Program-made: the position numbers and the translations under genes
In this document: positions 7,427 through 13,411 of the stretch, piece by piece
Position numbering within the stretch: the stretch's first letter is position 1
How the letters are laid out: each line of letters starts with the position of its first letter
From: Candidatus Micrarchaeota archaeon
GTDB taxonomy: Archaea > Micrarchaeota > Micrarchaeia > Anstonellales > Bilamarchaeaceae
NCBI GenBank assembly: GCA_018304385.1
Contig: JAGVWJ010000039.1
Span: forward strand, 1 to 21,007
Reading direction: 5' to 3'
Length of the DNA: 21,007 nucleotides
The notes under the pieces: generated by a model
Seen by the model: the letters and a program-made list of their open reading frames with translations, nothing else
Told to the model about the DNA's origin: nothing
Databases searched by the model: none

Positions 7427-7570
7427 GTTTTTGTTTACACAATTCTGTTTTTAATAAGTTGGGTCCTAATTTTTTACTTATATTTTACTTCTATAAGTAA
7501 GACATAGAATTGCCGACGCAGCAGAAGAAAATATAAGACTGCGTCTTTATAGAGAATATAAGTAGTACGA

Positions 7571-7582
7571 CGGAAATATAAG
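7571..7582 (+). promoter_or_regulatory. Probable BRE/TATA promoter of tRNA-Leu
   Basis: CGGAAATATAAG about 30 nt upstream of the tRNA 5' end at 7610. Confidence 0.45.
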
Positions 7583-7624
7583 AATGAGAATCTAGAAGTA
7601 TAATATAGTGCAGGGGTGGCGGAG

Positions 7625-7673
7625 TCACATCAGTTTCGAGTTTCCGGTTTCGGGTCTCGAGAATGTGTCGCAA
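7625..7673 (+). other. tRNA intron 1, 49 nt, D-loop position 15/16, BHB-type
   Basis: Central helix GCGG (7619-7622) / TCGC (7668-7671); 3-nt bulges AG|T and AA|C; inner helix CACAT/ATGTG. Removal restores the D-loop AGCGGCCAA. Confidence 0.88.
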
Positions 7674-7728
7674 CGGCCAAACGCGTAAGGTTGAGGGCCT
7701 TATGGCTTAGTGCCTTCAAGTGTTCGAA

Positions 7729-7897
7729 ATTGCTGCTTTCTTAAAAAGAAAGCAGTGGCAAAGAAACACGATATTTCGTGTTTTTGGCTCAAGCCTTTTT
7801 TATATTAGAAAATATTTATTCTAAAAAGGCTTTGTCAAAGTGGCAAAAAAACTTTGACAAATCGTTACATCATAGATGTAAAGGCTTGAACGAGCAA
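7729..7897 (+). other. tRNA intron 2, about 169 nt, T-loop (59/60, or 57/58-58/59), relaxed BHB
   Basis: Removal restores TTCGAAT. Central helix TTCG (7723-7726) / CGAG (7891-7894), 5' bulge AAA, 3' bulge of 4 nt (CAAT); the exact junction can slide by 1-2 nt. Confidence 0.82.
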
Positions 7898-7963
7898 TCA
7901 CTTCCCCTGCACTTTATCCTAGTATTAGCAATAACCCTAAAATCATCCTAGCTCAAAACGCTT

Positions 7964-8155
7964 TTAGACTTTTTTCACGTTCTTTGCACGCAACCCGCGT
8001 TCGCTTGATTCAACCTCGTACTCTACAGCGTCGCCGGTCGCTAGTACTGCTCCACCTTCAACTGCCGAAGTGTGCACGTACACGTCCTTACCATCATCAC
8101 CTGTGATAAAACCAAAACTACGCGCGGTATTAAACATTTTTACTTTTCCTTTCAT
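7964..8155 (-). CDS. Cold-shock protein (CspA family)
   Basis: MKGKVKMFN...FGFI (RNP1), DVYVH (RNP2), VEYEV...RAKNV; GAGGGTGA ribosome-binding site upstream. Confidence 0.95.
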   Translation of the reverse strand: MKGKVKMFNTARSFGFITGDDGKDVYVHTSAVEGGAVLATGDAVEYEVESSERGLRAKNVKKV

Positions 8156-8276: not shown

Positions 8277-9659
8277 ATGAGACTAACTTTTAATGGTGCA
8301 GCTGGAATTGTTACGGGTTCCTGCTATCTTCTAGAAACAACTGGAGAAAAAATTCTTATCGACTGCGGAATGTTTCAGGGTACGAAAGATATAACCAGAA
8401 TGAACTACGAACCATTCAGATTCAAACCTAACGAAATTTCTTACTTATTGCTAACTCACGCTCACATAGATCATTCAGGTCTCATACCCAAGCTAATAAA
8501 AAATGGTTTCCACGGAAAAATAATCGCAACACCACCTACAGTAGATCTGGCAAAAATTATGCTAAAAGATTCAGCTCATGTAAATGAAGACGATACTCTT
8601 CATGAAAATAAAAGACGTATGAGGCTGGGGCTTAAACCAAGAGACCCATTGTATGCGCTTAGTGACGTGCTTAGGTCATTTGAATTTTTCCATCAGATTG
8701 GATATGAAAATCCATATTCACTTACAGATAAAATCACTGTAATATTCCACAACGCTGGCCATATTTTAGGATCTTCCATAGTGGAACTCTTAGTTAGAGA
8801 AGCAGGAAAAACTACGAAGATAATGTTTTCTGGAGATTTAGGTCAGGGAGGAACTCAGATCTTAGAAGACCCTGCAACTATTCAGGAAGCTGATTTTGTT
8901 CTTGTTGAGTCAACATATGGAAATCGTCCGCGTGAGGATGCTACAATACGTGGAGAACTTCTGTCCAAAGAAATAAATGAAGCATTTGCTAGAGGCGGAA
9001 AACTGATGATCCCGTCTTTTGCAGTTGAAAGAACACAGGAATTGCTCTATTATTTGCACATTTTAATTCGTGATGGGAACTTCCCTGCTGAAATTGTATT
9101 TCTTGATAGCCCCCTTGCAATCGAGGTTACTGAAGTTTTCAAAAGATACATGAATTATTTCTCCCCAAGATTGAGAAAGGAATTCACCAATCCATTCACC
9201 TTCAATCAGTTGAAATGCCTTAGGACTGCAGATGAATCACGCAGCATGAACGACTATAATAAACCATGTATAATAATAGCTGGCAGTGGTATGTGCAATG
9301 CTGGAAGAATTAGGCATCACCTTAAACATAATATATGGAAATCAGAGAATACACTGCTTTTTGTAGGTTATCAGGCTGAAGGAACTTTAGGCAGAGTTAT
9401 TCTTGATGGTGCAAAGAAAGTTAGAATGATGGGGCTCGAAGTAGCGGTAAATGCCAAGATAAGAAAAATAGAAAGTTTTTCTTCTCATGCAGATTCTAAG
9501 CACTTGACCAGCTGGATTACTGCTCTTAGAAACAAACCAAAGAAAATTTTCATAACCCACGGGGAGCCTGCTTCAGCAAGAGGACTTGAATCTAATCTTA
9601 GGAAACTAGGTTTTCGGACACATGTTCCGCGTATTGGAGAAGTTGTTGAACTGAAATAA
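8277..9659 (+). CDS. MBL-fold beta-CASP ribonuclease (COG1236-type, no KH domains)
   Basis: HAHIDHSG, AGHILGS, SGDLG, ESTYG, AGSGMC, SSHAD and THGE motifs are all intact. Confidence 0.93.
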   Translation: MRLTFNGAAGIVTGSCYLLETTGEKILIDCGMFQGTKDITRMNYEPFRFKPNEISYLLLTHAHIDHSGLIPKLIKNGFHGKIIATPPTVDLAKIMLKDSAHVNEDDTLHENKRRMRLGLKPRDPLYALSDVLRSFEFFHQIGYENPYSLTDKITVIFHNAGHILGSSIVELLVREAGKTTKIMFSGDLGQGGTQILEDPATIQEADFVLVESTYGNRPREDATIRGELLSKEINEAFARGGKLMIPSFAVERTQELLYYLHILIRDGNFPAEIVFLDSPLAIEVTEVFKRYMNYFSPRLRKEFTNPFTFNQLKCLRTADESRSMNDYNKPCIIIAGSGMCNAGRIRHHLKHNIWKSENTLLFVGYQAEGTLGRVILDGAKKVRMMGLEVAVNAKIRKIESFSSHADSKHLTSWITALRNKPKKIFITHGEPASARGLESNLRKLGFRTHVPRIGEVVELK

Positions 9660-12925: not shown

Positions 12926-13411
12926 TTATTCAAAATTCGTCCTTGAAATTTTTATAAAGTGAATATCTTCTTTCTCAATATATGCAATTACTAGTTCTTT
13001 CCTTAGTTTTCCGGCAAATCCTATTGCTTGTTTTATATCTTTCATATTAGTTTGCCAGTCTCTTGGCACAACCTTCAAAACGTATTGCGTTCTATCCTCG
13101 CCAACGCGAATTCCTTTTTGATGGACACGAAAATATTCAGTAGTATCCATGCTGACTCTTGTAATATAACCGCGATCTCTTAGAAATTTTATTATTTTGT
13201 ATTTATCATCTGCAAGTGCATCACCTTTTCTTGCATTTTCCAGTATTTTATCTTTATCAAATTTTATTACTCCTTTATCTGCGAAATATGCAGCCTCTAG
13301 CAATGGTAATTTTGCTTTTCCGCCTTCTTCAATTCCTGCACCTAAACCAATCAATTTTGTAATAAGCTCACTATCACTGACCTCTAAATAATCTTCATAA
13401 AGTTTTATCAT
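12926..13411 (-). CDS. tRNA splicing endonuclease, non-catalytic structural (beta) subunit
   Basis: LPLLEAAY, YKIIKFLRDRGY, FRVxxKG, YVLKV, AGKLRKELVIAYI match the EndA fold. Catalytic Tyr is replaced by His (FRVH) and catalytic His by Arg (EDRTQY). AGGTG ribosome-binding site. Confidence 0.85.
   Translation of the reverse strand: MIKLYEDYLEVSDSELITKLIGLGAGIEEGGKAKLPLLEAAYFADKGVIKFDKDKILENARKGDALADDKYKIIKFLRDRGYITRVSMDTTEYFRVHQKGIRVGEDRTQYVLKVVPRDWQTNMKDIKQAIGFAGKLRKELVIAYIEKEDIHFIKISRTNFE

Follow-up and report, generated by a model that had tools for sequence, protein, structure and literature searches.

The locus studied here, positions 7610-7911 of a micrarchaeal DNA window (the whole stretch analysed, 21,007 nucleotides long), raises the question of how a tRNA could be produced from a gene that is hardly recognizable as one. 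A first-pass annotation proposed a tRNA-Leu(GAG) split into three exons by introns in its D-loop and T-loop. This reading brings three questions with it: whether the gene is real, how its two introns could be recognized and removed, and how unusual such a gene is within its genome and its genus.

Identity and boundaries of the gene

Exon 1 (7610-7624) supplies mature nucleotides 1-15, comprising the 5′ strand of the acceptor stem, U8, G9, the 5′ strand of the D-stem and the start of the D-loop. It is followed by intron 1 (7625-7673; 49 nt), whose boundary is unique, after mature nucleotide 15 in the D-loop (Sprinzl position 15/16). Exon 2 (7674-7728; mature nucleotides 16-70) carries the rest of the D-arm, the anticodon arm with the anticodon GAG at 7693-7695, the variable arm and the 5′ strand of the T-stem, and ends with T-loop nucleotides 54-59. 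Intron 2 (7729-7897; 169 nt) lies in the T-loop, where flanking A residues allow three equivalent placements of its boundary (57/58, 58/59 and 59/60) that leave the product unchanged. Exon 3 (7898-7911) adds T-loop nucleotide 60, the 3′ strands of the T-stem and acceptor stem, and the discriminator A; CCA is not encoded. All these features lie on the + strand, and the 84 nt of exon sequence are distributed over 302 nt with exactly the coordinates and junctions that were first reported.

When spliced in silico (7610-7624 + 7674-7728 + 7898-7911), the exons form an 84-mer that ARAGORN identifies as tRNA-Leu(gag). Its acceptor stem has 7 bp and its D-stem 3 bp, the latter closing an 11-nt loop; the anticodon loop reads TTGAGGG, the variable arm is long and the T-arm is AAGTG-TTCGAAT-CACTT. 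The spliced junctions read GGCGGAG/CGGCC for intron 1 and GTTCGAA/TCACTT for intron 2. The long variable arm, the anticodon GAG, the discriminator A73 and orthology to Leu(GAG) genes are those of a class II tRNA-Leu.

Standard scanners overlook this gene, as had been expected: neither ARAGORN, with and without its intron option, nor Rfam found a tRNA in the raw 21-kb window. Such blank scans are expected for non-canonical introns and are thus no evidence against the gene. The open reading frame that the annotation track lays over the locus (7491-7673, - strand; 60 aa) overlaps the promoter, exon 1 and intron 1 and has no Pfam match. It is therefore spurious, as had been suspected.

Relatives were sought in 99 genomes of the same family, with hits aligned to the 84-mer by a spliced aligner. 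The ortholog in G073, a genome of the same genus, is identical in its exons at 84/84 positions. It has no intron 1, exon 1 being contiguous with exon 2 exactly at 7624/7674, and it carries a different intron, of 99 nt, at the identical T-loop site. This ortholog bears out the earlier placement of the introns at D-loop 15/16 and in the T-loop, with none at the canonical 37/38 position. The same promoter cassette precedes the G073 gene at 86% identity, and given this lower value the identity of the exons is far more than chance would give.

An uninterrupted gene is present in 20 genomes from 7 other genera, and the five of these orthologs that were re-scanned are tRNA-Leu(gag) according to ARAGORN. 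Other relatives are interrupted in different ways: a single intron of 77 nt precedes the T-stem in G069, at least three introns, one of them at 15/16, occur in each of G068 and G098, and the T-loop of G049 contains an intron of 42 nt. The T-loop is 7 nt long in G073 and in all uninterrupted orthologs, mostly TTCGAAT. Among 25 Leu tRNA relatives that align without gaps (anticodon GAG in 23, CAG in 2), base changes in the anticodon and T stems are compensated, for example at 28:44 (TA/CG), 32:40 (GC/CG/AT) and 61:75 (AT/CG/GC). In G074, the third genome of the genus, the queries used recovered Leu(CAA) and Leu(CAG) only and no Leu(GAG). Metagenome scans with exon 2 were blank at first and then returned only two bacterial Leu tRNAs that share the anticodon arm but are otherwise unrelated. 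The ARAGORN call on the spliced form and the orthologs in relatives confirm, at the level of sequence, that 7610-7911 is a real tRNA-Leu(GAG) gene with two introns at unusual sites.

The gene is preceded by a promoter/leader cassette (7507-7609, + strand) that ends at the tRNA +1 and includes an A/T-rich, TATA-like box at ~7574-7582 (-36 to -28). Copies ending at +1 stand at identical spacing before Pro(GGG) (C24:44682-44766, gene at C24:44767), Ile(GAT) (C26:24069-24142, gene at C26:24143) and Ala(TGC) (C20:87211-87285, gene at C20:87286) in the same genome (G000), which holds more than 20 partial copies. The cassette presumably acts as the promoter. Immediately 5′ of +1, Leu(UAA) (C33:8306-8335, - strand) and Ser(UGA) (C55:2630-2661, + strand) each have a perfect hairpin of the GCCGCCTTTTA..TAAAAGGCGG type, which could be a leader-processing or promoter-associated element. 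Downstream of the tRNA gene are genes for a cold-shock-domain protein (7964-8155, - strand) and a beta-CASP/RMMBL RNA-metabolising nuclease (8277-9659, + strand).

The two introns and their junctions

Intron 1 had been credited with a clear bulge-helix-bulge (BHB) motif, a description that holds for most of its elements. The central helix H pairs 7619-7622 (GCGG, exon nucleotides 10-13) with 7668-7671 (TCGC, intron positions -6 to -3), the bulges AG/T and AA/C are both 3 nt long and in canonical register, and the inner helix h′ pairs 7626-7630 (CACAT, intron nucleotides 2-6) with 7663-7667 (ATGTG) over 5 bp, enclosing a core hairpin at ~7634-7662. The outer helix h is absent, which makes the motif a relaxed HBh′ rather than a strict hBHBh′. 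An H of 4/4 together with an h′ of 5 bp or more occurs at random genomic sites with a frequency of 2.3e-4. Through this HBh′ motif the intron would be recognized by the pairing of exon nucleotides 10-13 with TCGC and cut two bases into each 3-nt bulge.

In G073, G098, G068 and G069, homologs of intron 1 interrupt Leu(CAG), Leu(UAG) and Leu(GAG) genes at the identical site, and relatives were found in Leu isoacceptors only. The eight members of the family keep H (4/4 in six, 3/4 in two), with one G-U pair replaced by A-U and one by G-C, and the sequence of h′ differs while its pairing is kept, for example as GATCA/TGATT or ATAC/GTGT. Conservation of H and h′ was scored by junction-anchored counting in place of RNAalifold on a MAFFT alignment of the eight D-loop introns, which missed the BHB, the junction columns being misaligned by gaps. 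Unconstrained minimum-free-energy (MFE) folds contain no BHB conformers either; that of the 302-nt precursor is non-tRNA-like and uninformative, and the BHB conformer of intron 1 is 3.7 kcal/mol less stable than the local MFE structure. Within the 302 nt, 58 pairs satisfy a loose BHB filter, that of intron 1 among them. Relaxed BHB-like patterns are thus frequent by chance in so hairpin-rich a stretch, and the comparative evidence, rather than the motif, carries the case.

The conserved core of intron 1 (7630-7661) was also considered as a dispersed mobile element. This idea was rejected, the non-Leu hits being short, GTTTC-type heptamer-like repeats in intergenic DNA and no copies of the intron. 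The core resembles runs of these repeats, which in many genera are found between genes and also shortly after the 3′ end of several tRNA genes; core-like examples lie at C52:16162-16181 and C12:48845-48862 of the same genome as well as at L024 and L046-L048.

Intron 2 is modular. It contains hairpin M1 (7732-7756), a short hairpin (~7764-7783), the long hairpin M4 (~7789-7832) and a nested two-hairpin insert of 47 nt (7833-7879) placed between 8-nt direct repeats AAAGGCTT (7825-7832 and 7880-7887), and it ends with a guide, CGAGC (7891-7895), and a terminal AA, all on the + strand. Alignment with the long introns of Leu(UAA) and Ser(UGA) from the same genome, Leu(CAA) of G074 and Val(UAC) of G073 identifies it as a diverged member of a family of long modular introns. 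The 5′ parts common to this family are a first hairpin with a compensated stem, a CAAAGAAAC segment, the short hairpin and GTTTTTGG; the 3′ parts are the long hairpin (~7789-7832) and an end of the form GGCTT-SAA-guide-AA. Over intron positions 43-169 the identity to the T-loop intron of G073 tRNA-Val(UAC) reaches 80%, and modules of intron 2 recur in the genome's own Leu(UAA), Ser(UGA), Tyr and Leu(CAG) introns and in G074 Leu(CAA). Related sequence is hence found across tRNA types, as in transposed intron families of the Thermoproteales type.

The 47-nt module is present in intron 2 and in the G073 Val(UAC) copy and absent from the other aligned members of the family. Related modules occur in the Tyr intron of this genome, in the Leu(GAG) intron of G073 and in intergenic DNA upstream of Asn (C59:33333-33378 of this genome), and the module behaves like a miniature insertion element. 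The alternative that it is an intron within an intron was discarded, there being no BHB at any sliding boundary. Intron 2 is a patchwork and apparently a mobile element, and both intron families are probably gained, lost and exchanged among tRNA genes in this archaeal family.

The motif of intron 2 had been called relaxed; this holds, and the description can be refined to a 5-bp helix adjoining both cut sites, with the 5′ site facing a multi-branch loop. In this helix CGAGC (7891-7895) pairs with T-arm nucleotides 53-57 (GTTCG, 7722-7726), and two bulged bases on each strand precede the cut (AA/A and AA/T), giving the TTCGAAT loop. At none of the three equivalent boundaries is there a 4-bp central helix register that would give a 7-nt T-loop. 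A fold in which the acceptor, anticodon and variable stems were enforced, and nothing else, contains the 7722-7726/7891-7895 helix, stacked on a 10-bp helix (7789-7798/7880-7889), with the 5′ site in a multi-branch loop. The junction is predicted from this model to adopt a bulge-helix-loop (hBH-like) layout that yields the correct product. Recognition would depend on the guide CGAGC and terminal AA at the 3′ end of the intron, paired with T-arm nucleotides 53-57; the 3′ cut would fall in the bulge between the guide helix and the T-stem, and the 5′ cut two bases past the guide helix, in the loop that bears the intron hairpins.

Among the 65 introns catalogued in this genome, the junction helix of intron 2 is the sole one of 5 bp, and 29 have a perfect 4-bp H in canonical register. 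The homologous introns of the genome's own Leu(CAG) and of G073 Val(UAC) have the same ending one base earlier (58/59) and are canonical. One tentative reading of these relationships, which we hold to be possible although not probable, is that Micrarchaeota have a modular, self-spreading family of introns of which intron 2 is a functioning copy, recently re-sited and still tolerated by the epsilon2 endonuclease with its 5-bp guide helix. Exchangeable hairpin modules would form the body of such an intron, followed by a 4-5-nt guide and a terminal AA, and the guide would form the splice motif with whatever tRNA loop receives the intron, so that retargeting would need a change of the guide only. 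Hairpin cassettes of the intergenic type could nest in the intron body, and the 5-bp guide helix would be one base out of step with its canonical relatives.

The same rarity of the 5-bp helix, set beside the many perfect 4-bp introns and the two canonical homologs, also lends some weight to a different account of a functional gene, in which cleavage in a 4-bp register leaves a T-loop of 6 or 8 nt or a 1-nt sequence error in the A runs of the junction conceals a canonical motif. This account is improbable. The uninterrupted orthologs and G073 all have a 7-nt T-loop, which is exactly the length produced by a 5-bp helix with cuts two bases past it, and published relaxed substrates have bulges of 1-4 nt or lack one bulge (PMC3239211). 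The bulge-helix-loop layout is the putative geometry for intron 2, where the enzyme may accept the 5-bp helix or may cut the two sites independently.

Processing, copy number and function

The host genome encodes a broad-specificity endonuclease and an RtcB-type ligase. The endonuclease is an epsilon2 EndA of 399 aa (contig C28) that matches the ARMAN-2 structure PDB 4FZ2 over its full length (E 1e-129), and the RtcB gene is cut by a contig end. In this analysis the placement of the genome in Micrarchaeota draws on the EndA match to ARMAN-2. The ARMAN-2 epsilon2 EndA cleaves in vitro both strict BHB substrates and a relaxed hBH intron at T-loop position 59/60 (PMC3239211). It is very probable, in our assessment, that 7610-7911 is a single functional tRNA-Leu(GAG) gene: the common promoter cassette would drive a precursor of ~300 nt, from which the ARMAN-2-like epsilon2 EndA would excise both introns, the exons then being ligated by RtcB.

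A shorter EndA-like paralog (161 aa) is encoded within the window itself (12926-13411, - strand), conserved alongside the full-length epsilon2 endonuclease. This protein retains the catalytic Lys but has other residues at the catalytic Tyr and His positions; it may serve as a partner subunit that lacks catalytic activity, and we found no description of it. It was considered as a cause of the intron load of the genus and rejected: being present in 96/99 genomes of the family whatever their load, it does not explain that load.

The layout of the Leu(GAG) gene is representative of its genome. In this 1.53-Mb assembly, the Rfam model detects 4 tRNAs and ARAGORN in intron mode 4; Rfam finds 5 and 9 in the same-genus genomes G073 and G074, respectively, compared with 45 and 36 in G058 and G054 of a sister genus. 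With the 45 tRNAs of G058 as queries, 33 loci were located, and 32 of them have introns (none in 1 gene, one in 6, two in 19 and three in 7), which makes the twice-split layout the rule in this genome rather than the exception. Of the 65 introns, a few with imprecise boundaries (for example, a doubtful 559-nt gap in Ser(GGA)), 25 lie in the T-arm and 22 on the D-arm side, and the remaining 18 interrupt the anticodon or variable region; their median length is 51 nt, and 12/65 are at least 100 nt long. ARAGORN accepts the spliced forms of 31/33 genes. The uninterrupted G058 queries did not locate Val, Asp, Trp, Leu(CAA), Thr(UGU), Ile(UAU) and some Arg and Ser isoacceptors, genes whose exons may be shorter still, or which may fall in the 11% of the genome absent from the assembly.

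An intact Leu(GAG) gene elsewhere had been named as the finding that would count against this copy. None was found in the 89%-complete assembly by BLAST with the exons or by a genome-wide search with the 45 tRNAs of the relative. Leu genes were otherwise recovered for CAG, UAA and UAG only, every one of them interrupted. CTT and CTC account for 29% of Leu codons in long open frames of this genome, CTT alone for 24%. With no second copy found and these codons frequent, the gene is, judging from the genome sequence, needed.

That the locus is instead a disrupted pseudo-tRNA, with CUU and CUC decoded by a different tRNA or by a gene copy within the 11% that is not assembled, is very unlikely. Such a view can draw on the off-standard splice motif of intron 2, the obvious nested insertion within it and the incompleteness of the assembly, at 89%. 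It has to contend with exons that are 84/84 identical to those of G073 between flanks at about 86%, with all stems intact and with a G073 ortholog likewise interrupted in its T-loop. The promoter cassette is also that of other tRNA genes, 32/33 tRNA genes of this genome look alike, and no other Leu(GAG) was found even though CTT accounts for 24% of Leu codons.

Least likely of all, to the point of being nearly negligible, is that the pieces are expressed separately and joined in trans or that intron 2 is removed otherwise, such as by self-splicing: intron 2 is long and highly structured and the whole precursor has a z-score of -8.3, but the exons form one contiguous, ordered series on a single strand within 302 nt, neither split nor permuted, long complementary leader sequences are absent, no group I/II ribozyme core matches at the Rfam gathering score (up to E 10, matches are at chance level only), 169 nt is too short for such ribozymes, and sister introns of the intron 2 family have canonical BHB junctions. 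Excision of both introns by the epsilon2 endonuclease thus remains the preferred explanation.

Relation to known systems and biological significance

In split and tri-split tRNAs, as in Nanoarchaeum equitans and Caldivirga maquilingensis, separate genes give transcripts that are joined in trans. The Leu(GAG) tRNA resembles these in being assembled from three pieces through BHB-type junctions, but here the three exons lie in order within 302 nt. Multi-intron tRNAs and transposed intron families of Thermoproteales were reportedly described by Sugahara in 2008 and Fujishima in 2010.

The closest comparison is ARMAN-2 (Candidatus Micrarchaeum acidiphilum), in which 56% of tRNA genes are disrupted (PMC3239211). 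Both organisms encode the same epsilon2 type of enzyme (Fujishima et al. 2011, PMC3239211; Hirata et al. 2012, PMC3488258; PMC12397907), both have introns at non-canonical sites including T-loop 59/60, hBH and HBh′ motifs and several introns per gene, and in both the disrupted genes escape tRNAscan/ARAGORN. They differ in extent, with 56% disrupted there against 32/33 located genes here, where 4 are visible to Rfam or ARAGORN. They differ also in the intron itself: the published 59/60 test intron is 13 nt long, whereas the one described here has 169 nt, is modular, contains a nested insert and has a 5-bp junction helix.

For Thermoproteales, the published accounts describe up to three introns per tRNA and related introns across tRNA types and positions (PMC4090602; bioRxiv 10.64898/2026.10.13.758758). 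The likeness lies in intron sequences that recur across tRNA types and in junctions constrained by the BHB requirement. The differences are that this archaeon belongs to another phylum and has an epsilon2 endonuclease in place of (alpha-beta)2, that its introns combine long hairpin modules with a short site-specific guide before the terminal AA, and that similar hairpin cassettes also occur outside tRNA genes. In Asgard archaea, as here, many D-arm introns are overlooked by standard annotation and a minority lack the canonical motif; intron families shared across tRNAs are almost nil there (1.5% at 80% identity), in contrast to the 80% identity between intron 2 (positions 43-169) and a Val tRNA intron of a sister genome (bioRxiv 10.64898/2026.10.13.758758).

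Multi-intron tRNAs, non-canonical sites, relaxed motifs and intron families shared across tRNAs are thus already established in ARMAN-2, Thermoproteales and Asgard archaea, and the earlier statement that multi-intron, non-canonical tRNAs are known from ARMAN and Thermoproteales agrees with the literature (PMC3239211; PMC4090602). Four features extend past what has been published: tRNA genes are interrupted almost throughout in this genus, long modular introns contain nested hairpin cassettes, Leu(GAG) itself is polymorphic for its introns within the genus, and a single junction helix measures 5 bp. In the open-access literature, we found no description from Micrarchaeota of near-total interruption, nested cassettes, polymorphism within a genus or a 5-bp helix.

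The Leu(GAG) gene is ordinary for its extremely intron-rich genus, and its value lies in the context that it exposes. Standard tools see 4-9 tRNAs per genome in this genus, so their tRNA counts are useless for it, and inferences on annotation, completeness and decoding will be wrong without intron-aware methods. Comparison of this genome with G073 at Leu(GAG) offers a clean natural example in which to study how tRNA introns of archaea are acquired and swapped. The 5-bp junction helix in the sole Leu(GAG) gene located provides a testable prediction on the limit of substrate tolerance in the epsilon2 endonuclease.
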